Assembly: GCF_006345805.1 (NCBI RefSeq)
Contig: NC_043001.1
Coordinates: forward strand, 30,566,001 to 30,630,000
Length of the DNA stretch: 64,000 nucleotides
From: Octopus sinensis
Taxonomy: Eukaryota
Reading direction: 5' to 3'
Position numbers and translations under genes: made by a program. Under the pieces are notes generated by a model. It was not told the origin of the DNA, made no database searches, and saw only the letters and a list, made by a program, of their open reading frames with translations. Each line of letters starts with the position of its first letter. Position 1 is the stretch's first letter. Positions 26,272 through 51,758 of the stretch are shown piece by piece.

Positions 26272-26628
26272 GAGCGAACGGTCTTCGTCCCAGATGGGAG
26301 AAGTCCGAAACTTTAGTCCTTTGCTATTCGCAAGACCCGCAGAAGAGAAAGCAGGTCAACCCCCGACACCGAGAACATCGACGGATGGATGAATGCGCAT
26401 CCAGGCTCAGCGGTTGCGTAGGAAGTCGGGGACAAGAATCAGGAAGAAAGAGTGAGAGAAAGTTGGAGTGAAAGAGTACAACAGGGGTCGCCACCACCCC
26501 CTGCCGGAGCCTCGTGGAGCTTTAGGAGTTTTCGCTCAATAAACACACACAACGCCCGGTCTGGGAATCGAAACCGCGATCCTCCGACCACGAGTCCGCT
26601 ACCCTAACCACTGGGCCATTGCGCCTCC
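26272..26628 (-). mobile_element. tRNA-derived SINE inserted in the PLE endonuclease region
   Basis: Head GGAGGCGCAATGGCCCAGTGGTTAGG..GGTTTCGATTCC, flanked by TGCTGTTGCTG-like repeats. Confidence 0.75.
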
Positions 26629-27621
26629 ACTGCTGTTGCTGCTACTGTTGTTAGGGATACTGTCATTGCTGGTTGTTATTGCTGTTATCGCTGGCGATGG
26701 TGCTGTTGGTTCTGTTCGCGTTGCTGCTGCTGTTACTATTGGTACTGACGTCCTTGCTACTGTGGTCGCCGTTAGGGGAGCAATTGATGCTGTTACTGCT
26801 AAGGTCAACGAGTAACTCGGCTTCGTAGACGATTCCCTTGGTTTCGCAGTGGCCCCCCTCACTGAGCATCTGTTGCGGTCCCTGCATGGACATCCTGTCT
26901 CTGCTCGTGGCCTAGGGGTGCTAACTAGAATGCTCTTAATATTGGGGACACAGCCAAAAGAGACCCTAACGTTGTGCCTGTTAAAAATGCGTCCGCATCT
27001 ATGTGAACTAGTGAAATGTTTATCTACTAACTTAAATGATATCTTACCTATAGACGTTTTTACGTTATGAGTGAAGCGGAGGGCGGGAGACCAAATGATA
27101 TTTCTGTGGCGCTTCCTTCTACGGATGATGGGGCCTGACATGTATGAGATGTGGTCCCTAAATCCGCTAGTAGCTAGGGCCTTGTTATAGTAGGGGGCTG
27201 CTGCATTAAAAATCTCTTGGTTGAAGGAAAGGTTCGTGATCCTCTTACTAACACCTTTCACCAGGTTTTTGAACACGATGGGTGGGTGACAGGAAGTTGT
27301 GTTGATGTAAGTTAGCCTCACATATGGCTTGCGGTAGGGCCTATATATACCGGAGCCCAAGTCGAGCGTGACATCTCAGAAGTCCGTAGTGATGAGGTTG
27401 GTCTCAATGTTGATTTTTAATCCCTTGGAGGCAAGTGTGTTAATTAGATCTTTCCTAAGCTTGTCTAGTGTGTGGTCGTTTGCTCCTCTAGAGATGGCCA
27501 AGGCGTCATCTCTATAGAGACCAAAGAGGACAGAGGGGAATTTTTTCTTAAGGGTATCAAGGATATACAACCCGATGAGGTCGCATGCATCAGCGATGTC
27601 GTAGGCCCTCATTGCTGTGTC

Positions 27622-29826: not shown

Positions 29827-29888
29827 ATGAGATCCCTTCTATTCCTTACTATTTGCATGGCGTTTGCCACTTGCCATGCTCTTCATAG
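29827..29888 (+). CDS. CTSD: Cathepsin D-like lysosomal aspartic protease, exon 1 (signal peptide)
   Basis: MRSLLFLTICMAFATCHALH(R), a hydrophobic signal peptide. AG|GTAAG donor; phase 2 matches exon 2. Confidence 0.85.
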
Positions 29889-32800
29889 GTAAGCTATTTT
29901 TTTATTTTGCCCGTGTTACAATTTAGATCGGTGACAGCCTTGTCACCAATATTTATTATTATAAACCAACTATTTATTATTGTAAACCAAGTATTTATTA
30001 TTGTAAACCACTTTCACATGACCGATGTATGGTGCACTGAATTATGATGTGCCTCATTTCTTCTAACAACTGTTAAATTCTACCCTGAAACCCTGGGTTA
30101 TTATTATTATTATTTACTATTATTATTATTATTATTATTATCTTTTTTCGACCTTTTATGTTATATGCAGTTGAAAATAATAGTTTCGTTGGGCATTTGA
30201 GCTTAAAAGGAAGGCCTGACAAAATCAAGTACACAATTTTTTTCTGTTGTGACCGAGAACATGATTCCCAAATAAACGTTAACCTCATTCCTTTATTATT
30301 TTATGTTGGATAAGTGTTAAGATTGAGATCAAAGCATAATCAAACTTGGGTCACACGATCTTACGGACACTTTTGAGTCATTCATTGAATATCCATTCCT
30401 AATCCTTCGTCTAATATAAATGTGAATGGCTGACGTTACTATAAAGATAATTGTGCAGCTGATTTATTACAAATAACAAAGGAAATATTCTGATAAGAAA
30501 CTTTGTTACTAGGATTATGCTTACAAGATACATGCGTATATGTATTTATATTACAAATAACGGTACCTACGTAAATACATGTATTGGATTTGATAATTTC
30601 AGACGTGATATTTATTTCTTCTTTGTTGCTTTAAATAAATAATTATTAATTATTTCTGAAAGACTCATTAAAATTGAACAAAGAAACCTGCTGGATTCAT
30701 CGAACTGAATGAAATCACATCGCAGGTTTCACGGAAAAACCACGTAAAATAAATAAACAAGTTTTACTAATTGTATGAAATAATAAATGTTTTTTAAAAA
30801 CTCGCAACGGATTTTGGAACTAATTTGAGAAAGTCATCTTCGTGAACAAAATCTCATACCTCTATATTGTTTTTGAAATATTTTGTGTAGGGTAGCAACA
30901 TATTTTGTGATCTACAAAATATGATATACAGATTTTGTTTTCGTCATATCTATAATTAATCGATATTAAGGACATGGGGGTAACTCTACGTAATCACTTG
31001 CTTTCTAGAAAGAAATAAGTCAGTAGCCTCTGATGACACCATACCGTTTTTAAGAGAGACACATCATTCATGCTTTAAAAGCATTCGTTTGAACGAACGA
31101 GATTTTTTGGTAAATCTGTTGACCTAGGGCTAAACAACAAATTAAGGATGTCCAAGTTTTTGATGCATTTAAATTGTATATTTATTTATTTATTCTTGCA
31201 TGAATTTGATCTGGATCTACTTTTACTGGTTGAGGGTCGATTGGCTTCCTTTGTATGATGCGAAAATGATAATTGAACTATTTCATTGTAAGGTGTTATT
31301 GTTCCAAGAATTAGGAGTTGCCAGTTTTTTTTGCCAGTTTTTTTTGCCAAGGCAGCTGAGTGTCGAAGAAAAATACTTTTTGTTACGTAATTTCTCTCGT
31401 TTCTTCTTTTTTCCCCCACCTAATGGCTGCAACGATATGAAACTACGTAAATAAATCAGCGTATTCTATGTTGTCTGTTGATGTAGCCTAGAAATATTGA
31501 TTTTTATGCACATACAACCTCACCTCAGATGTATGAGATCGTGTGGTGTTCATGTTTTCTCGAGGCCGCGAGTAATAAACTAAAAGGAGTTAGAAATAAG
31601 GAGCGAATGGATCGCTGATTCGCATGACAGGAGATAAAACCGTTTGTTACAAGATTTACTCCCACATCAATAGTTTTTGTAATATCCAACTGAAGCGAAA
31701 AGTAGTAGATTATCAGTACCACGATGCGCCAAGGCCAATTTCGGTCTTTTTGCTGCATTGATGTCATTGAAGATAAAATGTGGTCGCATCGCGATTTGAC
31801 CTTTCATGAATTAATTTGTCACACGCAAAGATTCTGTGTCTTTGGATAGAATGGATTTGGTTGACATATTCCAAGCGCCTCTGTCGTAACTGGATGCTTT
31901 GAATCTTATTACCCCAATAAACGAAACAATGTATTTTGATTTAAGCTTTATATTGTTGAAGACAAGTAAAATCTAACGTTGTCTGGGTTTTTTTTTTGTG
32001 ATTGTCATCAAAGAATTTTTAAATAGCTTAATATTTTCATTGAAAAAATATTTGGCCATGATCCAAATGACAATTCTGTAAGTCAAAACGAAGGATGACT
32101 CTGACCATTTTTCGTTTTGACTTGCAGAAATGTCATTGTTGTTCGTTAATTTTCGTAAAATTACTTTTTTTTTTACTTTAGTTTTAAAGTGAAAGGTATC
32201 TGTACGTATATATGAAATGGAGGTGTGTGTGTGTAAGAGAGAGAGAATGAAGTGGGGTGTTGTCATGTATACGTTTATACCAAATATTTTTCATACTCTA
32301 TTTAATAATGAATGTATAATTTTTACTCAAGGTATGCTTGTATGCACGCAATTGTTTGTGTGATTAAGGAGTTCGTTTCGCAACCACTGGTTCTTGCTGC
32401 GTGACACCATGAGAATGTTTTCTTCTATCGCCTCAAATCAGATGAGTGAATTTGGTAAATGGAAACTATAGAGAAGCCCTTCGTGTAGATATATTTGTTT
32501 GTATTTTGACATTGTTTACACACTGCGTAAAAACAATGCCACTTGCATCAGCCATAAAAACATATCCAGTTGGATTGCGGTTCGTTTAGAAATTCAGATG
32601 AATAAGTAGTTGGAAACAAGGAAGGCATCTGGTCTTAAAATACTGCGCCAACATGTAATCAAAGAAAATGAACGTAAAAATAAAGATATACACAGTGGAA
32701 GTCGCTTATTGTGATCATTTTGAAACGAAACTTTTGACCACAGTAACCGGTTGATGACATTACCCAGCATTATAATATCTTCATCATTTAACATCCATCT

Positions 32801-35399
32801 TCCATCCATACTAGCATGAGTTTAGGTCTGCATCGTGCTCTACTGTCTACTTTGACATGGTTTCTATGGTTGGTTGCCCTTAACACAAGTCATTTTACAC
32901 AGTAATGGGTGTTTTTGTTTTGGGGGGAAGGGCACCAGCACTGGTAAGGTTGCCATGCAGCTCACAAAACTAAGCAACTAAGCTGCCCCTGCAACTGAAT
33001 GGGGCTACTGTAGAGAGGGAGGTAACTCAATGCTAGATGAGAGGCCAAAGTATGAAACAAAGGGCTGGAACGGGTTTCTTGCTGTAGAGGGTAGCTGTTT
33101 GCATTATAGAAGAGTGGGTAAGCGTAACCAGGTAAAGCTCGAAAGAAAGATAAAATTGTGGCGATGAGGTGTGAAGGTGGACCCTCAAGTTATATATATA
33201 CATCTTTATCTGTATATTTACCTTCCCTAAGATGTTATTACTTGATTTGAAAACTTTTATATTATTGGAAAACCTATATGAATTGGCTGAAGATTACTCA
33301 GCATCTTAAATCTGCTGTAATATTTACAGCTTTTAATAAAATGTTGTAGTATGAAACAATTGTACTAATATATATATATATGTGTGTGTGTGTGTGTCTA
33401 CATATATATATGTTTTTTATGTCTATTTTTCAATGCTAGCATAGATTAGGTGAATATATTATTGAGGTGATGTTTCACAGCCAAATGCCCTTCCTGTGAA
33501 TAACCATTAACTGTTTTCAAGTAAGGGATCATTTACTAATGTCTTTGAAATTGAAAAGCAAATGGACAGAGAAATGACAACGCTTTTGTAGCTTTCAGTT
33601 TTCATAGAATGAAAATGTAAATACACAGACACATACACAATGAGCTTCTTTCAGTTTCTATCTACCAAATTCATTCACAAGGCTTTGGTGGGCCCAGTTG
33701 AACACACTTGTCCAAAGTACTACACAGTGAGATTTGAACCTGAAACGATATGGTTGACTATACACAGCATAGATCATAATGTTAAATGAGGATTTTATAT
33801 AATACATGCACACAAAGTGTGTGTGTGCGCATGTCCTTTGTAAAATGACAATTGGATTGTGGCCTAATATGAGGGATGCTACAGATAAATTTTAGTAGAT
33901 GGCATGAAATCTCTCCAGAAGCAAGACAATATTCAGAATCACTAGAGATGATATTGTCGGAATTATTTGGACTTTGGAGTAGCAGCTTACCTCAACACTT
34001 AGAGTTCAAATACTACTCCAGTATTTTGTGAGTGAAATTTGATATATGGAAACTGTGTGTGTGTATGTTTATACCAGTCTAAAATAAACAAGGCTACAGT
34101 CCAGTGGCTGAAGCCAATAAAAGAGTCACTACTTCATCTGAATGATGCTAAATCATTGATATTTATAATGCCGAAGTTTGTTGTCTTTTTAGATCTGTAA
34201 ACCTTGTTTGTCATTGTTTAGTCCCAGGTCAACAATTATTGAGTAGACTTGATGATCTGTAGCATTCCAGCTGTTATAGAAGTATAAGTGAAGGGAAATT
34301 TGACTAGCCTATCGGGTAACCATAAAGTTTTACTTGGCTTGTTATAGCCGTTATTATAGATTAGTGACAAAGTAGTGTATAAAATGGTTATTTTATTTCA
34401 TGAATTTCATTCTATTCATTCTATCCCTTTTTAGTATCAAGTTTATTTATGAAAATTTCATTAAATGGTTACATCAATAAAGTGAGGCACAAAGCATCTG
34501 TGTGTGACATGTTTTTATGTAATGGTGTGGTGGAGTGGCTGGACTGATTTTATAGCATTTTCAATTGTCTTTCATGAACTGAATGAAGCAGTGATGAAAA
34601 CAACTTTCAAAATAATTTCTAAAAAATTCTTTCCAAATTGACAAATTAGCTCCTACTGCTATGAGTTAGCTGAAGGCAGGTTAGCACACAAGTGTTACTC
34701 AACTGAATTCATATACATTTCTAACCTTAAATCTTTCACCAAATATGTAGCCATCACTTGAACTTTAAAAAAAAAAAAAAAAAAAAATCTCAAACTTATG
34801 ACAAATATTTGTTGCCAAAAATTTATATAATGATCTACAACTACCTCATTTTAATTGTATTGCAATGCTATTGCTAAGTTAGTTTCTTTTCAGTATTATA
34901 GTCCTTATTAGTCCAGTATATTGTTTTACTGTTTTAATCTTTATTAGTAATGTAGTTAACCACCCCCTTCTCTCATATTCTGTGCTTATCCTGCTTATAA
35001 ACTTTTCCAGTATTTGGCAGCATATAAGATGTAAATTTTTCAATGAATGTCACAAAGAAATCAACTGGGGTCCTCCAATATGCAAAATTGGGTCTTCCAT
35101 ATACTTTAGCTCTTGAGCATTCAGATTTCTTTTGTTTAATGCAATGCTTATTTACTCACATTGCTTTGAATTAGTCATGTGTTACCTTGTAGCTGTGAGA
35201 TGTCAATGACATGATTGTTTATTTTTAGAATAGTATTGTATTGTAAGTGTGAAAGGCTGGATCTGGCCAGTTTGAGGATAAAGCAAGTAGATTATTTCGG
35301 CCAGATACTGCCGGTTTAAAGTTAAGAGAGTTTTCCTGAATATGCACTGTTGAAATTGGGGTATGTCAAATGACTATGTGTCTTTTATGCCATCAATTA

Positions 35400-35802
35400 T
35401 GGTTACCAGCGTCACCTTACTGGCACTTGTGCCTGTGCTAGTGGGGTGCTAAGAGCACCATCTGAGCGTGATCATTGCCAGAGTGGCTAACTGGCTTCCG
35501 TGCCAGTGGCACGTAAAAGGCACCATTTGAGCGTTATCGTTACCAACGTCGCCTTACTGGCACGTGAAAAGACATTCAAGCGAGGTCGTTGCCAGTACCA
35601 CCTGACTGGCCCCCCCGTGTCGGTGCCATGTAAAAGCACGCACTACACTCTCGGAGTGGTTGGCGTTAGGAAGGGCATCCAGCTGTAGAAACTCTGCCAG
35701 ATCAAGATTGGAGCCTGGTGCAGCCATCTGGTTCGCCAGCCCTCAGTCAAATCGTCCAACCCATGCTAGCATGGAAAGTGGATGTTAAACGATGATGATG
35801 AT
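35400..35802 (+). mobile_element. SINE-like repeat with (GAT)n tail and internal GTGGCACGTAAAAAGCACC tandem units
   Basis: TTGGCGTTAGGAAGGGCATCCAGCTGTAGAAAC..CCATGCTAGCATGG..GTTAAACGATGATG. Copies at ~36209-36445(-), 38150-38615(-), 46965-47326(+), 52447-52685(-), 53843-54360(-). Confidence 0.8.
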
Positions 35803-37244
35803 AATTTCACTGTCAAATAATATTACGATTGAAACACTTAATATGATTTTCCAGTGACACGAGGAAAATATTTTGCAGTAATGTAAGCTGTAAAAATAGG
35901 ATTTCAGCTGATGGTGTTGTTTTGAAAATCATAACTATTATTTATTTAACCCCCACCCCACCAAAAAAAAAAACCCTTTTATATTTTACATTGTTTATAT
36001 TTTAATGACTTCTATTGTTATGCCAACAGTGTATGTTTAGCCATTGCCAGAAATGCTTTTCCCTCTTGATTGCAGTCGTTTCAGGTCATTTGTATCACTT
36101 CTGCTCTTAAAAACACCTAATTTCCTTATTAATTTAAAGTAAGAAATTAATTGATGTCTATCGTTTAAAAACCATCACTCAATGAATACAACTTGTTGAA
36201 CTCATATTCATCATCATCATCATCATCGTTTAACGTCCGCTTTCCATGCTAGCATGGGCTGGACGATTTTGACTGAGGGCTGGCGAACCAGACTCCAATC
36301 TTGATCTGGCAGAGTTTCTACAGCTGGATGCCCTTCCTAACGCCAACCACTCCGAGAGTGTAGTGGGTGCTTTTTACGTGCCACCGGCACGGGGGCCAGT
36401 CAGGCAGTACTGGCAATGACCTTGCTCGAATCTTTTTACACATGCCATTTACTACATTCCTTTATTCTTTTTGCTTCAGCCATGCTGGAGCACCACCATG
36501 AGAAATTTGAGTCAACTAATCAACCCCAGTACTTATTCTATCAGTCTCTTTTTCTGAACCACAAATATCTATAGTAGTATTTCTCAATATTTTTAACTTT
36601 GAACTTTTAGAGAGAAAAAAATTTACTAGTGCTATTCACATGGAATGTTATGGAAAATTGTTTGAAAGTTAAAAAAAGAAAAATTTAGAAAATATACAGA
36701 AAAATATTGCTTGCCTTGCTTTATTAAAAATATATTTGATGATATTAGGGATTGCATATGAGGATTATTTAGTGCATGTTCTTGTGTCTTCTACTGAAGA
36801 CACTGGCTGACCACTACCTTGTGTATAACAAAGTTGTTCAATAACGTGTTTTTCAAAACTTTTTCTCAAGCATGAGTATAGATTTTATAAAGCCTTTAAT
36901 TATATTTTTAAAGTATGCAGTGCATTCAGATACCCCTTGTGGAGCAGTTTGAGACTCACTGGTATACAGTAATTACTGTCTTTGATGGCATACAAAAAAA
37001 AAAAAAAAGCCCATGGTACCTATATGTGAAGTTGAACCTCCTATAAGCTAATTTTGTCTCAGACTATCTCCTTTCCAAGTGTATGCTGCTGAAATTGGGG
37101 TGAATCTAATAATTCCCATGCAGCTTTTCAAATGCTGTATGTATTGATATTTTCAGTATTGGTTTTATTGCTTCTAAGTATATTGTTTATTTTCCTTCTA
37201 AAAATGTTCTGTCAACCACTTTCATTGTCTTTGTTTTCTTACAG

Positions 37245-37386
37245 AATCAAATTACATAAGATGACCAGTGTCCGACATGATCTCTTGAGCAAGGGAACCT
37301 CCATGGAAATGTTGAAATACCTCAACCCTCTTGTTTCCACCAGATATGGAGGTCCTGTTCCAGAGCCTCTGTCTAATTATCTTGAT
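37245..37386 (+). CDS. CTSD: Cathepsin D exon 2 (propeptide and start of mature enzyme)
   Basis: ttacag| then (R)IKLHKMTSVRHDLLSKGTSMEMLKYLNPLVSTRYGGPVPEPLSNYLD then |gtaa. RIxLxK and PEPLxNYLD are pepsin-family motifs. Confidence 0.93.
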
Positions 37387-37584
37387 GTAAATTAATTTTC
37401 ACATTCCTTTTTTTACTTCTTTTTTGTTTTACACACACATAAGTGTGAATGTGCTTTCTCAAAAATATTTGATTACAATATTTGGGATTGCATATGAGAA
37501 TTATTTAGTGCATATTCTTGTCTTCCACTGAAGTCTCTGGCTGACCACTGCCTTGTAAGTTTGAAACAGAAACTGTATCAAACC

Positions 37585-37621
<37 letters not shown>

Positions 37622-39471
37622 AGAATGAAGGACTATGAATGTTTGCATTTTGTACTCTGGTGTAATGGTAAATGTTGACAATTTCATCAGCTAATACATC
37701 TTTTGAAGATGTGTGGAATACGAAAATCCCTTGCTTGAAAAACAAGCAAGGGTTAGTACAAGAAGGGAGTTTGACTACAAGACATACCTCAATGATATGT
37801 ACTTGTCTAACCCAAGTTAGCACGAAAAAGCAAATGTTGAATGTGTGTGCATATTTGCACCGTTTTCTTTTTTCTCCTGGAAAAGGCACTGGTTTTCATT
37901 TGGCATCGTACACCAACTGCAAGCAAGAGTGATGTGTATATGTGTGTGCTTGTGTGTGTATGTTGCTTTCCAACCATATGGTTTAGGGTTCAATCCCATT
38001 GCATGTCTCTTCTGCTATTGCCTTGGGCTGGCCTAAAACCTTGTGAGTTTAAATTTTATAGACAAAAACTGAAAAAATCCTGCTGTATGTATATATGTAT
38101 GGTTGTGTCTCCTTGTTTTGACATCGAGTGGTTGCTTAAATAAATATCATTCATCATCATCATCGTTTAACGTCCGTTTCCCGCACTAGCACGGGTTGGA
38201 TGGTTCGACTGGGGTCTGGGAAGCCAGGGCTGCACCAGGATCCAGTCTGATCTGGCAGTGTTTCTACAGCTGGATGCCCTTCCTAACGCCACCCACTCCG
38301 CGAGTGTAGTGGGTGCTTTTTACGTGCCACCTGCACAGATGCCAGGGGGGCCTGGCATCGGCCACGATCGGTTGGTGCTTTTAACGTGCCACCGGCACGG
38401 AAGCCAGCCAAGGCGGCGCTGGCATCGGCTACGTTTGGATGGTGCTTTTTATGTGCCGCCGGCACAGAAGCCAGTCGAGGTGGCGCTGGCAACGGCCACG
38501 TTCAAATGGTGCTTTTTATGTGCCACCGACACAGGTATCACAACTACTATTTCCATTGATATTTGTTTCGATGTTCGTGTACATGCACTTGACTCAACAG
38601 GTCTCCTCAAGCACAGCGAGTCTCTATATATATAAACGGCAAAATGTCTACGTGTGTGTCCTTTATACAAATCCACAATTTTTCAGTTAGAGGGCTTGCA
38701 CTTTCTATGGTCATTCAAAACTGTCCAAGGGTGGTCATGCACATCTTTGTATTTCCCCAGTCAGCCTGCAAGGCCATTAAAATAGATATTTTGTCTATTT
38801 CTTGCTCTTGGATTACAAAAGCAAATTCTTCAAAGTTAGAACTAACATCCAGGTTGTTAATCCAGAATAGACTGCACATCTCTATTTGCATCTATGTATA
38901 TATAGATGTTTATGTGTAAATATATATATGTAATGTATTGTTCTATCATTGGTGAGATCAACAAAAAAATTCAGAGATTCAGAATTCCCTTCAGCATTGA
39001 TATAAGCAATGTAACAGTTGAAAACACTTGAGGTTCTTATGTTACATCTCTCCCTCTCACCTCACTACATTGTTTTATTTCCAGCAGTTTCACAGCATTA
39101 CTGTTTCATATGCATATGCTCTGCTACAACAAAGTTAGAATACATGAAAATGTGTCCATTTGTTATAAATTGCAATTCCTGCCTTTATATAGTATTTTTT
39201 TTCAAAATTTTGAGCCCCCCCCCCCCAACTGTACACAGACATCTCAAAAGTAAATAGACACTCCTCTTAACCCATTTTACCTGTGTGGACACTGCTCATT
39301 AATATGATGTCCAAATGGGTTAAATCTTTGAAAACTATATAAAGAAGGTCTCGATACCAGATTAAGTATTTAAATGCTTCAAATGACATTTTGTTTCATG
39401 AAATAAATCTTTCAAAATAGAGGTGCCTATTTACTTTTGACATGTGTATATTCGATATGAATAAATCCTAA

Positions 39472-39639
<168 letters not shown>

Positions 39640-40820
39640 TAAAGATTTGTCCTTGTTTCAGACATTTGATTATGTTTCTTTTTTACGTCTTATTAACATC
39701 ATTCAGTTTTAGGACTGTTATGATACTATATTGCAAACAATGATGGCATATTGAATATTCTAGAAAGGATTGGACAAAAATATTAACATAAGTTTTATGC
39801 AAGCTACAGAATATTTATAGATTTCACAAAACGAGTTGGCAACTTGGATAATTTCATGCATGTTTGTTATTTTCTAGCAAAAAAGAGCAAGCTAGCAGAA
39901 ACATTAGAGCTTTGGCAAAAAAAAAAAATGCTTTGTGGTATTTCTTCCAATTTTTAATGTTCAAACCCACCTAGGTCAACTTTGCCTTTTATCCCCATGG
40001 GGGTTGATGAAATAAAGTAGCTCTTCTTCACGTCAAAATTGCTGGCCTTGTGCCTAAATCAGAAACCATTATTTTCTATGGAAAAGGCTTCGGATTGTTG
40101 ATTTTTAGCTATAGGAAAAACAGCTCTTTGAGTAGACGAATGAGCATTCTTGTGTTGGCAGTCTGTTATCCAATATGTTTTGACATTATGATTTGGCTAT
40201 TTCTAGCAGGTCAAGTGACTGTGTTGAGACTTTGATTTTTTTTTTTTTTTTTTTGGTAAATTTACCATATTACCAAGTCCTGAGATTTGGGTACTACTTT
40301 GATGCATCACAGTGGCAAATGTTACATGGATTACTTGAAGACAAACTTTTTTGTGATTTGGAGCAAATGAGGCTTATCACAGCTTGTATCTTTTATCTTG
40401 TTTGTCATTGGACTGTGGCTAACACTGGTGTACCATTCTAAAGGGTTTTAGTCAAACAAATTGATCCCAGCACTTATTTGTAAAACCTGGTACCTTAATC
40501 TAATGGTCACTTTTGCTGAACTGCTTAGTAACTGGAAAATAAACAAACACCAATAGTCAAGAAGTAGTGGACAAACACAATGACACACAACACACATATC
40601 TAGATATATACATCAGGTTTCTTTTGGTTTCTGTCTACCAAATCCACTCACTAGGCTTTGGTTGCCCAAGGTGACATGCAATGGAATTGAACTGGAACTA
40701 TATGGTTGGGAAGCAAGCTAATAACCACACAGCTATGCCTATGCTTATGAGTAACTGATTTATAATAGAGAAGACTAGGTGTTAAATAATAGATTTACCA
40801 TTTCAACTGCAAGACTTAGA

Positions 40821-41015
40821 TGTTAAATTTATTTCATGTACTTAGCCTATCTCAGCTTTAGTTCATTTTAAATTTAATGGTAGCATGTTAAATTTATTTC
40901 ATGTACTTAGCCTATCCCAGCTTTAGTTCATTTTAAATTTAATGGTAACATGTTAAATTTATTTCATGTACTTAGCCTATCTCAGCTTTAGTTCATTTTA
41001 AATTTAATGGTAACA
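40821..41015. repeat. Three tandem copies of a 65-bp unit just upstream of the exon 4 acceptor
   Basis: TGTTAAATTTATTTCATGTACTTAGCC... starts at 40821, 40886 and 40951. Confidence 0.92.
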
Positions 41016-41052
41016 ATCTGGTGTTAACTCTTTAAAAAAATTTTCTTTTCAG

Positions 41053-41171
41053 TGTTACATAACAAATATGATAATACTAAATCTTCCACATATAAACCAA
41101 ATGGTACAGACTTTGCTATACACTATGGAAGTGGTAGCTTAACTGGTTTCCTGAGCACAGACACAGTAAAG
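41053..41171 (+). CDS. CTSD: Cathepsin D exon 4 (flap region)
   Basis: (L)[39 protein letters not shown], with the NGT glycosylation site and YGSG flap. Canonical splice sites. Confidence 0.97.
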
Positions 41172-41592
41172 GTAAGTATTTTAAAATAGTCAGCAGAAAT
41201 TTATGTAAACTAAGAAGAATTCTATGTTTTGAACATAATAGGAATCAGCTGGGCCACTGAATTAAGTACAATTTTCATTGTTTTGCTTTTCAAATTCCTT
41301 ATTGGAGTATTGTTTTAGCTTTGTTCTTCTAAATTCCCTCCTAATCCACATTCATTGAACCATTACATTATGGCAAGCTACATTTGAAAATCGTCTGATT
41401 AGAGTGTGAAACAAGTTTTTGCTTCAGACATGACTGTGGTAAAAAGTTTTCTCCCCAACCCCATGGTTTCATGTTCAATCCCACTGTGTGGCACTTTGGG
41501 CAAGAATCACCTGTGAATAGATTTAGTAGATGGAAAATAAAAGCTCATTTTGTGGGTGGGTGTTTTTTACTCTCCTCCTCTTGATGTTACAT

Positions 41593-42120
41593 AATAATAA
41601 TAATGAAATTATTGTATACAGTGCTCAAGTGCACCACAACTTGTCAAAAAGTGCGTATAAAGCATAGGCAGTAATGTACAAATGTCTGGAAAGCGAACAA
41701 TGTATGAGTCAGATACATGCTTGTGTGCGTATGGAGGGGAGAAAATCAGGTGTAGTGTTGGCGAATCTCAGAAAGCATGGAAGTTTTGAAGGATGCAGTG
41801 CTCCGACAACTAGCAACTGATGCCAGCAGTTTGTTCCATGCTTCAGCAACTCTCAGCATGAAAAAATGTTTCCTGAAGTCATGGGAGCTGTGCTGTTTTC
41901 TGACTTTGTAAATATGCCCACGGGTGTTAGACGGGTGGAGTTTGAAAAGGTGCTCAGAGTTATTGTTTGTAAGATGGTTAATAATTTTATGGGTGTCTGC
42001 CAAGTCAAGTCAGCTGCCAGACGTCGGAGTTTCAATGTGTCCATGCACAGGGAAGTAAGGCGTTCAGAATATGGCAAATGCCTGATGGAGGGTATTCTCT
42101 TGGTTGCACGTCGCTGAACG
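41593..42120 (-). mobile_element. CR1/L2-like LINE 3' fragment
   Basis: QRRATKRIP..YSERL..L..TLKLRRL..NTRGHIYKV..FF.LRVAEAWNKL, with a (TTA)n tail. Confidence 0.85.
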
Positions 42121-42499
42121 AATTAGTTGTAAACTTGTATCATTGTCATACAAGTAATGTTCTTTGTTCCCAATTTTCTGTGAAAACGTCTGGTCATGGG
42201 GAAATTATCTTGCATGAAGACAGGTGAGGGTAAATGACAGGAAGGGCATCCATCCAGAGAAATTTCTCATTACCAAAGCAATGATGATGAAGCTTTGTGT
42301 TGAAAGTATTTTGTTTTAAGTAACTTCAGTTAATTCTTCCTAAAGATAAAATCTTATCAGTCATTATTATAGGTGCAAGTAGCTTGCTTACCAACTACAT
42401 GGTTCTTGGTTCAGTCCCACTGCGTGGCACCTTGGGCAAGTGTCTTCTACTAAAGCCTTGTGAGTGGATTTGGTAGACAAAAACTGAAAGAAGCCTGTC

Positions 42500-42606
42500 G
42501 TATATATATATGTATAATGTATGTGTGTTTGTGTATGTATATATATATATATAATGTATGTGTATTTGTGTATGTATATATATATATAATATATATAATG
42601 TGTGTG

Positions 42607-42696
<90 letters not shown>

Positions 42697-42737
42697 TAAT
42701 GTGTGTGTGTATATATATATATATAATATATATATAA

Positions 42738-42769
<32 letters not shown>

Positions 42770-42770
42770 A

Positions 42771-42803
<33 letters not shown>

Positions 42804-42806
42804 TAA

Positions 42807-42842
<36 letters not shown>

Positions 42843-42927
42843 GTGTGTGTGTGTGTGTATGTATATATATATAGTGTGTGTGTGTATATATATATATAGT
42901 GTGTGGTGTGTGTATATATATATATAT

Positions 42928-42961
<34 letters not shown>

Positions 42962-43055
42962 GTGTGTGTGTGTGTGTATATATATAATATATATAATGTT
43001 GTGTGTGTGTGTATATATATATAATGTGTGTGTGTGTATATATATATATAATGTA

Positions 43056-43121
<66 letters not shown>

Positions 43122-43314
43122 GTGTGTGTGTATGTGTATATATATATATAATGTATGTGTGTGTATATATATATAATGTGTGTGGTGTGTATATATATAT
43201 AATGTATGTGTGTGTGTATATATATATATAATGTATGTGTGTGTGTATATATATATATAATGTGTGTGTGTGTGTATATATATATAATGTATGTGTGTGT
43301 GTATATATATATAA

Positions 43315-43361
<47 letters not shown>

Positions 43362-43426
43362 ATATATATATAATGTGTGTGTGTGTGTATATATATATAA
43401 TGTGTGTGTGTGTGTATATATATATA

Positions 43427-43457
<31 letters not shown>

Positions 43458-43510
43458 GTGTGTGTGTGTGTATATATATATATGTGTGTGTGTGTGATAT
43501 ATATATATAT

Positions 43511-43542
<32 letters not shown>

Positions 43543-43615
43543 ATGTATGTGTGTGTGTGTATATATATATATATGTGTGTGTGTGTATATATATATAATG
43601 TATGTGTGTGTATAT
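42500..43615. repeat. ~1.1-kb compound (TA)n/(TG)n microsatellite expanded inside a SINE
   Basis: SINE head at ~42370-42500 and tail at ~43620-43790 flank the array. Confidence 0.9.
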
Positions 43616-44186
43616 GTTTGTCTTCCCATCGCTTGGTGTGTTTATGTCCCTGTAACTTAGTGGTTCAGCAAAAGAGACTGATAGAATAAGTACTAGGCTT
43701 ACAAAGAATAAGTCCTGGGGGCGATTTGCTCGACTAAAGGTGGTGCTCCAGCATGGCCGCAGTCAAATGACTGAAACAAGTAAAAGAGTAAAGTCAAATA
43801 AATAATCTCAAGCTTATTTTTTTTCTTGATGTACCAAAAATACAATTACATAAACTGTATGTATCTAACTAGAATTACTTATTACTTTATAATTTCATTA
43901 TGAAAGTATTTCCTGTGAAATTTTATGACTCAGTCCTTAAGTATTTAGATTGGTCTTTCAAATGTAATGCTTATTTATTCATGTTTTGAATTTATTCATG
44001 CATTGTCTAGTCACTTTGAGATTTCAACGATATGGTTGCTCATCTTTAGAATGATATTGTAGGGTAGGTGTGAAAGATTACATCTGGTCAGATTGAGCAT
44101 AAAACGGGTAGAATATTTGGGCTGGATATGGCTGGTTAAAATGCTGCAGGGTTAAACATTTTCTTGTGCAATTTTGTATTTTGTAG

Positions 44187-44386
44187 ATTGGAGAGATCGC
44201 TGTAAAAGATCAAACATTTGCTGAAGCCACAAATCAACCTGGAATTGTGTTTGTTGCTGCTAAGTTTGATGGTATTCTTGGAATGGGATATGACACTATT
44301 TCTGTTGATGGAGTTGAACCTGTTTTCTATAGCATGGTGGATCAAAAAGTTGTAGATAGTCCTGTGTTTTCTTTCTATCTCAACCG
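44187..44386 (+). CDS. CTSD: Cathepsin D exon 5
   Basis: [66 protein letters not shown](R). Confidence 0.97.
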
Positions 44387-44643
44387 GTATGTTGACTCTC
44401 AAAATTTGGAGTGCATGATATTTTTTTTTTTAAATGTAAAATATTAAATTGTAGATTGTAAAAAGATATAGAAATGCAATATTTCGATGATCTTTGAATT
44501 TGTTTACTAAAACTTTCTGTTTATGCAACCCTTTCAATATTTTCTATTTTTTATTATAAGTCTGTTCTCTCATGATGTTTATGTTGTTTATTCGAACATA
44601 AATATATTAAGATGAATTATTTATTTTTCTATTTACAATTTAG

Positions 44644-44766
44644 TAATCCCGATGCCCAGGAAGGTGGTGAATTGATTTTGGGAGGAACAGATCCTAAACA
44701 CTACGTTGGCAATATGACTTATGTACCTGTCACTAAGAAGGGTTACTGGCAGATTAAAATGGACAG
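44644..44766 (+). CDS. CTSD: Cathepsin D exon 6
   Basis: [40 protein letters not shown](S); splice phases consistent. Confidence 0.97.
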
Positions 44767-46736
44767 GTATATTTTTGTAAATTAGATTAAATCTTTCCTT
44801 TTTTCTTCTCTTTTTTCCACATTTTCATCCTTTAGGTGGTATATTGGTTTATACCAATTGGTATATACCAATATACCAAGGCATATTGGTATATACTAGA
44901 AGGCACATACTAAAATTGCCTTTTGGTATTTGTTGTGACTCTTTACATTCTGAGTTTGAATCTTTTTGAGACCAACTTAGATTTTCATTCCTTTGGGGGT
45001 CAATAAAATAAAGAACCTGCCTAATACTAAAGCTGATTGTATCAAAATTGCTGGCCTTGTGCCTAAATTAGAAATAATTATTTTTAATATTATGGCAGTT
45101 AATTGGCAGAATCCTCAGAGCCCAAGACAAAATTATCCTGTAGTACTTATTACTGCATGTTAGCTGCTGAAATAAAATGTTACTGAGCCTTTCAACTAAG
45201 CCTTTCCTCTTTCTATGCTTTATAAAATGAAGTAACATTAGTTGTCAAGCAAGGACACACATACATGTAAGATGTACCAAATTTTCTCACAAAGCATTGA
45301 TTGGCCCAATAAAACAGTAGTAAACTATTTTCTTAGGTTTCATTTAGTGGGAATGAAACCAAAACCACATGTCTGCAGAGCAAACTTAACCCTACAACTG
45401 TGCCTTCATCTGTTAGTGGAAATACTTTATACTTATCACCAGGCGCAGGAGTGGCTGTGTGGTAAGTAGCTTGCTAATCAACCACATGGTTCCGGGTTCA
45501 GTCCCACCGCGTGGCATCTTGGGCAGGTGTCTTCTACTATAGCCCCAGGCCGACCAATGCCTTGTGAGTGGATTTGGTAGACAGAAACTGAAAGAAGCTT
45601 GTCGTATATATGTATATATGTATGTATGTGTGTTTGTGTGTCTGTGTTTGTCCCCCTAACATTGCTTGACAACCGATGCTGGTGTGTTTACGTCCCCGTC
45701 ACTTAGCGGTTCGGCAAAAGAGACCGATAGAATAAGTACTGGGCTTACAAAGAATAAGTCCCGGGGTCGATTTGCTTGACTAAAAGGCGGTGCTCCAGCA
45801 TGGCCGCAGTCAACTGACTGAAACAAGTAAAAGAGTAAAAGAGAGGGATGTTGAGCCTGGTGTAATTATTACTATGTAATATTTTCTGTTACTAATGCGG
45901 CGAGCTGGCAGACTCACTACCATGCTGGGCAAAATGCTTAGCAGCATTTCTTCTGACTTAACATTGAGTTCAAATGCCATCGGTTGGTTTTGGTTTTCAT
46001 CCTTTCAGGGTCAGTAAAATAAGTACCAGTTGAACGCTGGGCTTGTTGTAATCAACTTAGCTTGCTGACCTTGTGCCAAAATTTGAAAGCAATATTTTCT
46101 GTTAATATATTTATTTTTAGTAATTCTTTAACATAGTCAGGCGTAGGAGCTTATCGACCACATGGTTCAGGGTTCAGTCCCACTGCGTGGCACCTTGGGC
46201 AAGTGTCTTCTACTATAGCCTTGGGCCTACCAAAGCCTTGTGAGTGGATTTGGTAGACGGAAACTGAAAGAAGCCCGTTGTATATATATATATGTATGTG
46301 TTTGTGTGTCTGTGTTTATGTCCCCGTAACTTAGCAGTTCGGCAAAAGAGACCAATAAAATAAGTACTAGGCTTACAAAGAATAAGTCCTGGGGTCGAAT
46401 TGCTCGACTAAAGGTGGTGCTCCAGCATGGACACAGTCAAATGGCTGAAACAAGTAAAAGAGACAAACTTCTGTTTGAAGATAGGTGGCAATTCTTTCTC
46501 ATCCTCTGCAGGAATTTCATACAAGCTTTGTCAATAAAAAAATGCATGGACTCATTGTTGAGTACACATTAAGTTCTCATTTTAATTTCTACTTGAAAGT
46601 ATTTTACCAAATTACTTCAGAATTGCATGAATGTTGCTACTTCTATATATGCGAGGCTTAGTGCTTATTTTTTTTGAAATTCATGTTAATCTGTTAAATT
46701 TTTGTTTTATCAACAATATTGTATTTTCTTATGCAG

Positions 46737-46878
46737 CATAACAGTGAAAAATAGTACATTCTGTAAAGGTGGTTGCGCAGCTATTGCTGATACTGGTACT
46801 TCTCTTATTGCTGGCCCAACAGCTGAAGTCGCTGAGCTCAATAAGTTAATTGGAACTAGACCTATACCTGGTGGCGAG
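46737..46878 (+). CDS. CTSD: Cathepsin D exon 7 (second catalytic DTG)
   Basis: [47 protein letters not shown]. Confidence 0.97.
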
Positions 46879-48180
46879 GTATTTTACATAAATTTTCTCA
46901 ATTTTTATTTTGTATGTCTGTAGCTTTGATAATTAGTTTTAATTTTTTTTTTGTCATATACAAAGCGAAATCGAAATCGAATTGAACCAGCCAGGATCCC
47001 TGGTCTGGTGGTACGTAAAAAGCACTATCCAACTCGTGGCCGATGCCAGCACCGCCTTGACTGGCTTCCGTGCCGGTGGCACATAAAATACACCAATCTG
47101 ACCGTGGCCGTTGCCAGCCCCGCCTGGCACCTGTGCAGGTGGCACGTAAAAAGCACCCACTACACTCACGGAGTGGTTGGCGTTAGGAAGGGCATCCAGC
47201 TGTAGAAACATTGCCAAATTAGACTGGAGCCTGGTGCAGCCTTCTGGCTTCCCAGAACCCCGGTCGAACCGTCCAACCCATGCTAGCATGGAGAACGGAC
47301 GTTAAACGATGATGATGATGATGATGACATAGACAGGCAGAGGCAGTTGCTGTGTGGTTATGAAGTTTGCTTCACAATCGCATTGTTTTAGGGCTCAGTC
47401 TCTCTGCATGGTACTTTGGGCAGGTGCCTACCATTGATGTCAACGATTAACATTCTTATAGAGTACTCACTCTTCATAGAGTACTTAGAGTCACTAGGTA
47501 GCTCAAAAACAGATTTTTTTTCAAGTGAATAAAGAGCAGTGCAGATATTGACATGTTCTAAGATTCTTTTCACTTAGTTCATGTGGAGCCTACTTGCCAT
47601 GCTTAGGCATAGTCCCAAGTTCTTACAAATGATAATAAACAGTTGATAATGATGAATTAACCCATTCTGCTAACTCTTCAGCAGTTCCATTTGGATTTCT
47701 TCCAGTAGCAGCTTTCAATACATCATTATCAAGAGACAGGGCGCTCAGAGCAGCACACACCTTCCAAACTAAAGTCCCCTTGTCAAAATTTATGGAACCA
47801 TCATTGGCACTTGCAAATATTCAAAACACCTTCACCATATACTTCTTGCACTTTTTTTTTTTTTTTTAATGGCATTTGTTGCCTTTTTCATACTCATAAA
47901 GCATGACATATCTGATGTGTTCTGCTGTGACCTCGCATTTTCATGAGGGTCTATTAAAGCAACAAATTGTTACTTGTGTGTCTGCAAGCTAGAATCTAAC
48001 CAACTGAGGCTTTCCTTGCTCTGTGGTATTAATGCACCTGTGAAAATATCTTGTTTAAACATGTTAGAGCAGGTTTCAACAAGTATGGTCTGAAAAAACA
48101 ACATAACTTATGAGAAGACCTGTATATAGCTTTGTATGCTAAAAATTTCCAATAACATGTTTTCTGTTTTTCTTTTCCAG

Positions 48181-48279
48181 AATCTGGTCGATTGTGGTAG
48201 CATTCCTTCATTGCCTGCTATAACCTTCACTTTAGGCGGTAAAAGTTTCACTTTGAGTGGCGCAGATTATGTACTTAAG
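48181..48279 (+). CDS. CTSD: Cathepsin D exon 8
   Basis: [33 protein letters not shown]; ttccag| acceptor and AAG|gtaagt donor, phase 0. Confidence 0.95.
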
Positions 48280-48882
48280 GTAAGTCAAATTTAGTAATAC
48301 CTGTATGTATGTGTGTGTGTGTGTGTGTATCAAATCTCATCTAATGTCCACTTTTTCATATTTGGATGGGTCAGTCAGAATTTGTTGAAGCTAGTTTTCT
48401 GTAACATGATGGCCAGATATTTTTTCGTGGCAGACTGGAAATGGACAGCATGCTTGTTTATATCCTTCATGCACTGTCAGAACAAAGGTACACACAAGCA
48501 CATGTACATGACTTCTTTCAGTTTCTGTCTACCATATCTAACAAGACTTTGTTGGCTCAGAGCTGTAACAGAAGACACTTGCTTAAGGTGCTGCATAGCG
48601 GGACTCAACCGAAGACCATATGGTTGGGAAGCAAGCTTCTTAACCACATGGCCATGCTTGCACCTTAGCTCCTTTTCAGCAAGACAGTTGTCCCTCTATC
48701 ATATTTTCATCTCCCTCAATACTATACTCTGTTCAGCTGAGAAGCTTTGTCTTGTGACTACTTGGTGACCTTACATGGAAAAAGCTTCCTGTAAAGTAGT
48801 TGGCATTAGGAAGGGCATCCATCTATAGAAACATCCAGTGCAGATAATGTAGCTCAGCATAGTCCTCTAACTTGACAGATTC

Positions 48883-49369
48883 TACATTATTTACATTTGA
48901 TGGATATTTGTCCCCATCTTGTTTGTTGTTAACACAACATTTTGGCTGATATACCCTCCAGCCTTCGTCAGGTGTCTTGGAGGAAATTTCAAACTTGGGT
49001 TCTCATTTCCTAATGTATTTTTCGATATTATTATTATTATTATTCAGGTCACTGCCTGGAATCGAACTCGGGATCTTGGGGTTAGTAGCCCGCGCTCTTA
49101 ACCACTATGGGCACATGATGTAGTGGTTAAGAGCGCGGTCTACTAACCCCAAGATTCCGAGTTTGATTCCAGGCAGTGACCTGAATAATGATAACAAAAG
49201 AAAAATACATTAGGAATGAGAACCCAGATTCGAAATTTCCCCCAAGACACCTGACAAAGGCTGGAGAGTATATCAGCTGAAACGTTGTGTTAACAAACAA
49301 GATGAGGACAAATATCCGTCAAATGTAAATAATGTACATAATTCCTTGTTTCTTAAATATAGAACTGTA
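48883..49369. mobile_element. Palindromic tRNA-head + hammerhead retroelement flanked by a target-site duplication
   Basis: Arms 48883-49107 and 49121-49336. tRNA-like A/B boxes at the centre and HHR motifs at ~48927-48976(-) and 49246-49291(+). TTGACAGATTC is duplicated at 48872-48882 and 49370-49380. Confidence 0.85.
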
Positions 49370-49507
49370 TTGACAGATTCTGTTGCCAGCATGGAAAATG
49401 GACATTAAATGATAATGATATAGAAAAACCTGCATTTAAGTTCCCTTAATATTTTTGAAAACTTTGTCAGTATGTTTTTTTTTTTTTTATTTTAATGAAT
49501 ATTTCAG

Positions 49508-49672
49508 GTAAAGTCAATGGGAGAAGTTCTCTGCTTGAGTGGTTTCATGGGACTTGACATTCCAAAGCCAGCTGGACCCCTTTGGATTCTAGGGGATGTA
49601 TTTCTAGGACCCAACTATGCTGAATTTGATCTCAAGAATAACCGGGTGGGGTTTGCAAAGTCAAGGAACTAA
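49508..49672 (+). CDS. CTSD: Cathepsin D alternative last exon 9a (391-aa isoform)
   Basis: tttcag| then [54 protein letters not shown]. Phase 0, uninterrupted. Confidence 0.88.
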
Positions 49673-50491
49673 AAGGAAAGATCTGTTTATATTTTGCGTG
49701 CACTTATAGTGGGTTCATCTTTTAGTGTCTTTTTTTCTCCCCCACTCCCTCTACTTGCTTTGCTTCTCTGTTGAAGCTTCAAATAGTTTGTAGGTTTCTT
49801 TTGTAGCTGCATGCTTGGTTAATCTGCATGAGAACTTTTCCTTCAGTTTCATAAATCTGTCAAACTGCACCAGTACAAATTTTCTTCTTGACGTTATACT
49901 TTCTGGGGCGTTTTAAATTAATCCAAGTCCCCCCTCCTCCCCATCAGTTCTATGGTACATTAAAGAAGTATTGAGATTACAAAGTTTTTTGTACTTGAAT
50001 GTTAAATGAGTTAACAATTCGAGTTATGAAAGAGTAACAATTTTTTTTTCACTCCCAAGTGTACCTAATTACATATTATCACGGTTCTTCCAAAGAGCTG
50101 CTTAAAGACTTATTTATATGCATTAAAAAAAATTTAATCTAGACGGGTGGAATATTGAAAAAATTATTTAGCAGCATGGATCATCTCATTATTTCTGTTT
50201 TGCTTTATTTGAATATTGCTTTGGTGTTTTCATTTTGCATGTATCTTTTTTAGATATTAATATCATCTCTTAAAAAAAAATTTTTTTATGGCTTTTTAAT
50301 TTTAAAATAATCTCCATTAATGCACTATCATTTATTATTTCTCACCATTCTTCCATCCTATTAAAATTCCATTCAACTTCTTTTTAATTTTCTCTTTTTT
50401 TTAACCATTCTATGAATAATTTTGTAATATATATTAGTTTTAATTACTTTAAATTATTACTCATCAATGTGGACATGCCATTATCTCGCAG

Positions 50492-50653
50492 GTAACTCAA
50501 GCTGGACAGACAATTTGTTTAAGTGGCTTTATGGGAATTGACATTCCTCCTCCCGCAGGGCCACTGTGGATATTGGGAGATGTTTTTATTGGAAAATATT
50601 ACACAACATTTGATGCTAAAGGTGACAGAGTTGGTTTTGCTCCTAGTAAATAA
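50492..50653 (+). CDS. CTSD: Cathepsin D alternative last exon 9b (390-aa isoform, canonical polyproline loop)
   Basis: tcgcag| then [53 protein letters not shown]. Phase 0, uninterrupted. Confidence 0.92.
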
Positions 50654-50776
50654 ATCAAAAATATTTTATATACATACAATATTAAAGCAAGATCCCTGCT
50701 ATTCCTTTTTCCTGTAAAAAGAAAGCATTTTCACCACCTGCTATTTGTGCCTCTTTTTTTATTTTTCTAATGATAG

Positions 50777-50782
50777 AATAAA
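50777..50782 (+). terminator. Likely polyadenylation signal of cathepsin D
   Basis: AATAAA ~125 nt after the 9b stop, followed by a GT/T-rich tract at ~50803-50820. Confidence 0.6.
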
Positions 50783-51591
50783 AATGTCTTTATTTCATAA
50801 AAATTGTGTTTTTTTTTTTTCTTCTTTGATACATTTAATGATGCATGCATGTACAGACACATACAAATAACTAGAGCTGAGTATAGCTACAGTCTAATGA
50901 CTGAAGCGAATAAGATACAAATTAAAGTTTGTTTCACATCTGTTGCTTTGACTTAATTTTATGCTTTTTAAGTTGGTCTTTATTGTAGCCACTTTTTAAA
51001 AAAAAAGTTTAAGCCAAGTGAAAGTGAATCTTTTAAAGACACAATTGATTAGATTTTCTAAGATAGCAACAACTATTCCTAACTAATGTGCTGAATTATT
51101 TGTAATAAGCCAACCTTACAATCATAGCTATGTTAAAATGGAAAAAAAGAAAAAAAAAGCACTTTGGAATAAAAGTCACATTCTTAAAGGATTCAGTTAG
51201 TTTTTGCTATTTGCTGTTAACCAACATGATTTCAAATTTTGGCACAAGTATCAGTAATTTCAGGAAGTGGCTATGTCAATTACATCGATCCCAGGGTTCA
51301 ACTGGTACTTATTTTATTGACTCTGCAAGGATGGAAAAGTCAACTTTGGAATTTGAACTCAGAACATAAGGAGGGATGAAATGCCCTTAAGCATTTTGCC
51401 CAGCATACTAATGCTTCTGCCACCTTTTAACCAACATAATGTACGGATGAATGTACAAGATTGTGTAATGAAATTGAAAACTATTGTAATACTGTTTGCT
51501 TTCATTCCCTCTGCTGTATATTGGCAAAAATACAAGCTGTAATAGAAGAATGGTAAATTATTCTAGGATTCAAATCAAAATGGAAATTTGG

Positions 51592-51597
51592 TTTATT
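51592..51597 (-). terminator. Candidate polyadenylation signal of SDHAF2
   Basis: AATAAA on the minus strand ~160 nt after the stop. Confidence 0.45.
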
Positions 51598-51758
51598 CTA
51601 AATAAAATTTGTAGCAAAGCAAAGAACTGCTACTGGAGGAGGCAACATTATTAACTCTGAGACTTGATATGCTTGTAGCTTTTCTTTTTTTTTTTTTTTA
51701 ATCCAAAAGAATGACTATTTTACAAATACATTAAAAATGAAGGAATCCTCTGGTAATT

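Follow-up and report, generated by a model that had tools for sequence, protein, structure and literature searches.

Tandem duplicated exon substitutions, including those that swap the C-terminal end of a protein, are a known and common kind of arrangement; in the accessible part of a human catalogue, the C-terminal region is exchanged in 77 of 236 events (PMC9741552). The last coding exon of octopus cathepsin D belongs to this kind, and shares with the human cases, as far as that text describes them, consecutive homologous exons of which one is used per protein, retention of core residues, mostly conservative changes and an old origin. The octopus exons encode structural core and a wall of the substrate cleft of a pepsin-family enzyme, as opposed to a tail, and are apparently selected by choice of acceptor with shared 3' ends; neither 'Cathepsin' nor 'CTSD' occurs in the catalogue's main text. 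The nearest functional parallel is insect serpin-1 (Manduca, and PpSerpin-1 of Pteromalus), in which, according to the accessible text of PMC10513286, duplicated alternative last exons change the specificity-bearing end of the protein and the body is shared. However, serpin-1 is an inhibitor with many fast-evolving exons, whereas mollusc cathepsin D is an enzyme with two or three slowly evolving exons for which a change in specificity is only predicted. The digestive and lysosomal cathepsins D of insects belong to the same enzyme family and differ in the same loop that lies within the variable octopus exon, but on the evidence of the accessible sections of PMC3886914 each has a gene of its own, and the digestive forms are marked by loss of the motif DxPxPx(G/A)P, which both octopus isoforms keep. 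For a bug aspartic protease, intron retention is the only such variation reported in the part of PMC11978366 that was available.

Work on molluscs normally takes cathepsin D to be a single enzyme and uses it as a standard marker of lysosomes, digestion and the response to pollution. The older literature on schistosomes includes two forms of cathepsin D that differ by a C-terminal extension. Schistosoma mansoni cathepsin D1 (PDB 9rxi, 9snt) is the best structural match to the model of one octopus isoform described below (9a; TM 0.85, 57% identity), and the accessible text of its paper makes no mention of splicing or isoforms (PMC12865886). A literature search covering main texts, largely from outside subscription journals, found no account of mollusc cathepsin D with alternative last exons, nor of this arrangement across molluscs, and both octopus products are already present in the automatic annotation as X1/X2 records. 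The accessible part of a 2025 paper reports no evidence of cathepsin D in the genome or transcriptome of Octopus maya (PMC12032550), which is at odds with the intact gene and spliced contigs described here and with the database proteins of other octopods.

Within the window, i.e. the whole 64,000-nucleotide stretch of Octopus sinensis DNA that was analysed, the last exon of one cathepsin D gene is present as two tandem copies, here called 9a and 9b, both of them intact and separated by long divergence. Exon 8 is spliced to 9b and likely also to 9a, which would result in two complete proteases that differ only in their last 53-54 residues and likely in a property of the substrate cleft or in the handling of the zymogen; this reading as a whole is considered likely. 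Should the endings prove to be functionally different, gene-level expression counts and activity assays will have mixed two enzymes, and the locus offers a natural experiment in which 337 residues are identical and only a module lining one side of the cleft is different. For a duplicated-exon switch that acts within the core of an enzyme fold, the arrangement is unusually old, and its interest lies in its conservation across the phylum and in the exchange of a module that lines the cleft.

All exons of the gene lie on the plus strand. Coding exon 1 (29827..29888) holds the ATG and an N-terminal hydrophobic stretch that is likely a signal peptide, exon 2 (37245..37386) the propeptide region and the start of the mature enzyme, exon 3 (39496..39619) the first catalytic DTG and exon 4 (41053..41171) the flap region, followed by exons 5 (44187..44386) and 6 (44644..44766), exon 7 (46737..46878) with the second catalytic DTG, and exon 8 (48181..48279), the last shared exon, whose phase-0 donor GT at 48280 is common to both endings. 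These eight shared exons, spanning 29827-48279, all have GT donors and AG acceptors. The coding part of the proximal ending, 9a (49508..49672), encodes 54 residues and forms residues 338-391 of isoform X1; that of the distal ending, 9b (50492..50653), encodes 53 residues and forms residues 338-390 of isoform X2. Joined to exons 1-8, they give products of 391 and 390 residues respectively from spliced frames without internal stops, identical letter for letter to XP_029636147.1 and XP_029636148.1, the Octopus sinensis 'lysosomal aspartic protease' X1/X2. Membership of the cathepsin D group (pepsin family A1) is indicated by a bilobed chain with a propeptide and two DTG motifs, both in shared exons (DTGSS in exon 3, DTGTS in exon 7), by cathepsins D being the nearest solved relatives in sequence and fold (9a isoform compared), and by the lysosomal-type motif DxPxPx(G/A)P, as defined in the accessible part of PMC3886914, in both exons.

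A search of the Octopus sinensis genome with 9b returned two strong matches only, 9a and 9b themselves, and found no second close cathepsin D gene. Six weaker matches (L003-L008) were rejected as further exon copies, being distant aspartic proteases with mostly 29-48% identity over longer matches. They are compact genes with apparently very short introns on small unplaced contigs (C8901, C9587, C8591, C9497, C9530), possibly from a parasite or another assembly contaminant; introns this small are reminiscent of dicyemids. Elsewhere in the window, a G+C-rich stretch on the minus strand (25566-27375) contains two open frames of 249 and 258 codons that, as an impression from their translation, look like retroelement remains.

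The two last exons have the structure that the original prediction gave them: an AG acceptor, phase 0 with exon 8, an open frame and a stop of their own, TAA in both cases. Its hand count of 35 identical residues out of 53 was borne out, as was its remark on synonymous differences, with different codons at 21 of the 35 shared residues, and the loop and end sequences read as it described them (14 protein letters in 9b, 15 in 9a). The exons are thus consecutive and homologous, in the same phase and 984 nt apart. At the nucleotide level they are identical at 94 of 159 positions, with Nei-Gojobori pS = 0.88 (saturated) and pN = 0.26, and their flanks are without similarity except for one 17-nt match (E 0.04). 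The saturation of silent sites, the low pN and the unrelated flanks together indicate an old duplication in which both copies were kept open. The 'basic tail' attributed to 9a is trivial, with a net exon charge of +1 against 0 for 9b, and is inconsistent in relatives, leading to its rejection as a distinguishing feature.

Evidence on splicing was obtained from contigs of four of 22 listed runs, one each from four studies, aligned to 48100-51700. The data are assembled contigs whose RNA nature is presumed, from runs selected for containing this stretch and given without tissues, and contig depths were not taken as expression values. The joint 48279>50492, linking exon 8 to 9b with GT..AG, is present in all four runs, in each of which exon 7 letters form the loose end before exon 8. 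The corresponding joint to 9a is absent among the joints listed for the four runs, a list that omits rows close to repeats, one such repeat being the T-run ahead of the 9a acceptor. Indirect evidence for it comes from three runs (X4, X8, X12) in which a long contig starts at the acceptor AG of 9a (49506), in the same way as 9b pieces start at 50490. In X8 and X12 these 9a contigs carry 24 unplaced letters, a layout that matches the 9b joint (side 24, both 6). In the same two runs, bin 49431-49551 has a depth (94 and 264 respectively) that equals contig depth x 46/121, from which it follows that the intron just upstream of 9a is uncovered in these runs. In run X1, 9a occurs only on a contig that continues into intron 8, and in X4 a minor contig also crosses the 9a acceptor from the intron; these look like unspliced RNA. 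Use of both exons after the same upstream exon is therefore indicated directly for 9b in four of four runs and indirectly for 9a in three of four, together with annotated and transcript-derived ortholog pairs, so that of the two junctions originally proposed, 48279>50492 was recovered throughout and 48279>49508 only by this indirect route. The depths of 9a contig and 9b joint by run (638/796, 695/1485, 183/1738 and 247/3529) hint that the share of 9a varies between runs, although contig depths cannot rank parts of a gene.

These contigs also bear on whether 9a could be a decaying relic or an annotation artefact, transcribed only as retained intron. The missing 9a joint among those listed and the intron-crossing contigs of X1 and X4 are as such a reading would have it, but the contigs that begin exactly at the 9a acceptor, the intact frame with saturated silent sites, the retention of 41-48 of 53 residues of 9a in other coleoids and a full-length 9a-type protein from transcript-length contigs of a relative make it highly improbable.

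The 3' end of the gene appears to differ from that of classic alternative last exons with separate polyA sites. The inter-exon stretch (49673..50491) contains no AATAAA (three ATTAAA occur) and no match to a donor-like pattern, and 9a contigs are unbroken across its 819 bases in all four runs, reaching 50519 in three of them and 50402 in the fourth. Given this continuity between 9a and 9b, the locus is probably not a pair of classic alternative last exons, with a minor intervening site being possible. An AATAAA at 50777 and a likely cleavage/polyA site at about 50798-50803 (feature 50777..50803) lie downstream of 9b; depth falls near 50800 in X8 and X12, and in X12 the sequence behind 50803 consists of As followed by adapter-like letters. 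Longer 3' ends are also present, with contigs to 51132 and 51672 in X1 and X4 and a second AATAAA at 51168. The proposal that one gene makes two proteases by terminal-exon choice is upheld in that the gene has two old, functional endings, both annotated and with conservation extending well outside octopus; it is refined in that the endings probably do not have separate polyA sites.

On the simplest reading, two acceptors that lie 984 nt apart would compete for a single donor (48280), and the 3' ends would be shared, as we infer from contigs, from which single molecules are not provable. Use of the proximal acceptor would place the stop at 49672 and leave the downstream stretch through 9b as a 3' UTR of about 1,130 nt, the inter-exon stretch then being likely untranslated; use of the distal acceptor would remove 9a and the inter-exon stretch along with intron 8 and leave a 3' UTR of about 150 nt. 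Neither message would be expected to be a nonsense-decay target, since no exon junction follows either stop.

The 9a AG is preceded by a long T-run and that of 9b by a weak pyrimidine tract. Intron 8 also contains a long palindromic, MITE-like interspersed repeat of about 450 bases (48883..49336), ending about 170 nt before the 9a acceptor and probably incidental, with arms of 45 nt (96%), 77 nt (94%) and 122 nt (78% complementary). It likely forms a long hairpin in the pre-mRNA, and its very high contig depth derives from other loci. Just after the donor, 48337-48354 pairs with 49395-49412 before 9a as an 18-nt inverted repeat; the energy is -29.9 kcal/mol, against -20.3 for the 1% quantile of the background. 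Its pairing close to the 9b acceptor is weak, at -17.0, about the 5% quantile. A motif closely similar to 48337-48354 has 108 exact copies in the genome and is an interspersed repeat; a docking-site/selector pairing was therefore not accepted as an ancient mechanism, the motif being a repeat end.

Alternative endings at the same exon boundary are widespread among relatives. Of 25 protein clusters opened, 21 contained same-species proteins that are identical up to residue 335-346 and different after it, always at this boundary; the clusters were mostly picked for 'isoform' in the name, and the proportion is therefore no frequency. In total, alternative endings were found in 26 named species from four mollusc classes plus a nemertean, mostly as automatic annotations: two octopuses, a cuttlefish, a chiton, a limpet, three abalones, five oysters, three scallops, four mussels, four heteroconch clams, a unionid and the nemertean Lineus. 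A squid-like pair was also recovered from transcript-length assembly contigs of 1.2-1.3 kb (P0296/P0135), and three mussels and Lineus have three endings each. Mis-fused gene models of oyster, mussel and pearl oyster carry both exons in a row, in the same type order as the window, and the best orientation of the exon pairs agrees with genomic order in the window, oyster and mussel, the pearl-oyster model lying outside that test with the same order. No swap was seen in four of the clusters (Solemya, Pomacea, Plakobranchus and Biomphalaria), and eight further caenogastropod or heterobranch species have one form only, each with a C-terminal tail; the single form in snails may reflect loss or incomplete annotation. 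A set of near-identical proteins (P0308, P0310, P0311) was rejected as an exon swap, as its members diverge at 337-340 by single residues only. In Mytilus galloprovincialis, the last exons of the proteins 'cathepsin D1' (P0272) and 'D3' (P0209) are those of X1 and X3 respectively, and such products have therefore been named before. A mussel cathepsin paper by Romero et al. in 2022 probably introduced the names D1-D3 and may describe the splicing.

The structural position of the swapped exon was examined in an AlphaFold model of the 9a isoform, which is a complete cathepsin D (pLDDT 84, pTM 0.84) with schistosome, rat and tick cathepsin D as its best structural matches. In the model, exon 9a comprises hairpin strands 335-340 and 343-348 with a turn at Met341-Gly342, a strand at 350-352, the proline loop at 353-362, the ILGD segment and the last two strands. 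The swapped piece is thus modelled as a core part of the pepsin fold, with a surface hairpin, and a strand and proline loop at one wall of the cleft. Comparison of the 21 pairs revealed differences between the exon types that are shared across lineages, most strongly at exon positions 3, 4 and 7 and then at 14, 20 and 16. Second-type exons, to which 9b belongs, have Gln3, Gly5 and Thr7 in 21 of 21 pairs. Position 4 is Met, Phe or Leu in 16 of 21 exons of the first type and in 0 of 21 of the second. The conserved differences lie mainly in the hairpin before the cysteine. The middle residue of the proline loop differs in 13 of 21 pairs, and the octopus cleft strand differs little, with Met at position 14 in both exons and Leu/Ile at position 16; in oyster or scallop pairs, position 14 and the tail are more divergent. 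Some differences are lineage-specific: coleoid 9a has LGPNY in four of four species against IGK(Y/F)Y in 9b, and in scallops, heteroconch clams and unionids the first-type exon only carries an extra 25-40 residues, approximately.

By pepsin numbering, the classic S2 residue corresponds to exon position 14. Exon positions 4-5 align with Met336-Gly337 of S. mansoni cathepsin D1, which the accessible text of PMC12865886 gives as S2 subsite residues not resolved in the crystal. By either assignment, at positions 4-5 or at 14, the S2 residue therefore lies within the swapped exon. Modelling of Clonorchis cathepsin D, as presented in the available parts of PMC8466142 and PMC6960241, places the proline loop over the substrate pocket and describes nearby hairpins as mobile. 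Taken from the sequences, the two isoforms are likely to differ in subsite preference, activation or sorting.

A different view is that the two proteins are functionally equivalent and that selection acts on the RNA, with the long and short 3' UTRs setting stability, localisation or translation. The two predicted UTR lengths, the extension of 9a contigs over the whole inter-exon stretch and into 9b, and the conservation of much of the exon, in which 22 of 53 positions differ in at most one of 21 pairs, including the GPLWI and GD motifs, would all accord with it. Against it, type-specific residues are kept across classes, coleoid 9a retains its LGPNY in all four species, and the additional tail of scallops, heteroconch clams and unionids is confined to the first-type exon, making equivalence of the proteins rather improbable compared with a difference at the protein level.

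The original prediction had also invoked a proline-loop change of the kind seen in insect digestive cathepsin D. This was rejected, given that both octopus exons keep DxPxPx(G/A)P, and across the pairs the motif is kept in 20 of 21 exons of the first type and 17 of 21 of the second; the exceptions have Asn in place of Asp or, in the case of Lineus X3, lack two residues. The loop therefore provides no support for a lysosomal-versus-digestive distinction between the exons. A secreted digestive role for the 9a product and a housekeeping lysosomal role for that of 9b, on the model of the insect paralogues, would nevertheless be in keeping with 9b being the ending most like canonical cathepsin D and joined in all four runs, with the hint of a run-dependent share of 9a in contig depths (which cannot rank gene parts), and with the lack of a second close cathepsin D gene in the genome search. 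In addition to the retention in both exons of the motif whose loss marks insect digestive forms, however, the database 'cathepsin D' of the squid Todarodes is 9b-type, and this division of labour is accordingly given a low probability. The Todarodes protein was reportedly cloned from digestive gland. Among the listed members, assembly-derived oyster proteins (P0278, P0289-P0291) are first-type and those of cuttlefish (P0121, P0123-P0125) second-type, 15 of 37 oyster members being listed; this is a weak hint that the dominant isoform differs between lineages.

The age of the duplication was assessed from exon comparisons, trees and a permutation test. Octopus 9a is identical to O. bimaculoides 9a at 48 of 53 residues and to cuttlefish 9a at 41, against 35 for cuttlefish 9b, and octopus 9b matches cuttlefish 9b at 45 of 53. 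The coleoid 9a exons form a clade (support 99/92), and an octopus-only duplication, with the four octopus exons constrained together, was rejected (AU p = 0.0245) on a tree of 43 of 67 rows, with 24 left out, and 53 columns. The pair therefore predates the octopus-cuttlefish split. This split is dated to approximately 270 million years ago. Deeper in the tree, four of the five AU tests did not reach significance: one clade uniting all second-type exons was not rejected (p 0.16), and nor were separate duplications in coleoids (p 0.24), heteroconchs (p 0.27) or oysters (p 0.26). Some exons group by lineage, i.e. mussel X1/X3 (98/91), chiton X1/X2 (94/70) and the scallop exons, and trees of 53 columns do not distinguish a single ancient origin from several. 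The differences between the exons are correlated across nine mollusc lineages, with a score of 444 against a null of 210 +/- 43 that was reached by none of 2000 permutations (p about 0.0005), pair orientation being optimised in the null too, and 34 of 36 lineage pairs are positive. The correlation is confined to the first 8 residues, positions 9-53 alone giving p 0.80, and could reflect convergent selection. Adding Lineus X1/X3, chosen among three exons, gave p 0.002, with five of nine Lineus comparisons positive.

Several of these results would also be expected had the last exon been duplicated independently in coleoids, oysters, heteroconchs, scallops, chitons and nemerteans, with the copies drifting or converging to similar hairpins: the lineage-wise grouping of some pairs, the failure of the AU test to reject coleoid, oyster and heteroconch clades, the limitation of cross-lineage signal to the first 8 residues and the poor match of the Lineus pairs to the mollusc types. 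Convergent tandem-exon duplications are, moreover, common according to the available part of PMC9741552. However, the exon boundary is identical in all 26 species, the order of types is the same in the four lineages in which order is visible, and Q3, G5 and T7 are present in the second-type exon of all 21 pairs, with a bulky hydrophobic residue 4 in 16 of 21 first-type exons and no second-type exon, such that repeated origins are considered unlikely. As boundary, order and signature agree, one old duplication with partial homogenisation fits best. The sequences place the duplication at least as far back as the octopus-cuttlefish split and most likely in the common mollusc ancestor, after which there would have been partial homogenisation, extra copies in mussels and the nemertean, and perhaps loss in some snails.

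A more far-reaching version of the single-duplication scenario is that the last exon was duplicated once before the mollusc classes split, perhaps even before molluscs and nemerteans parted, and that the resulting splice switch has for more than 500 million years governed which of two acid proteases of distinct function is made, swapping a mobile hairpin and a wall of the substrate pocket and, in scallops, clams and freshwater mussels, adding the tail of 25-40 residues for sorting or secretion. In this full form the scenario is put forward tentatively, as possible though doubtful.

Further variation is apparent at the same end of the protein in other species. In Mercenaria mercenaria (P0236, P0262 and P0263, corresponding to X1-X3), X2 is set apart from the other two by the segment between residue 304 and the exon 9 boundary, and exon 8 thus also seems to exist in two alternative versions in this clam, with two adjacent swappable exons; the window has one exon 8. 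Records named 'isoform X2' are also present for the brachiopod Lingula, the bryozoan Watersipora and the amphioxus Branchiostoma. The proline loop is shortened in Lineus X3, a bryozoan X2, an amphioxus X2, corals and a cockroach (P0246, P0309, P0312, P0315, P0298, P0300), and in the Lineus, bryozoan and amphioxus proteins the short loop is found together with Gln at exon position 3.
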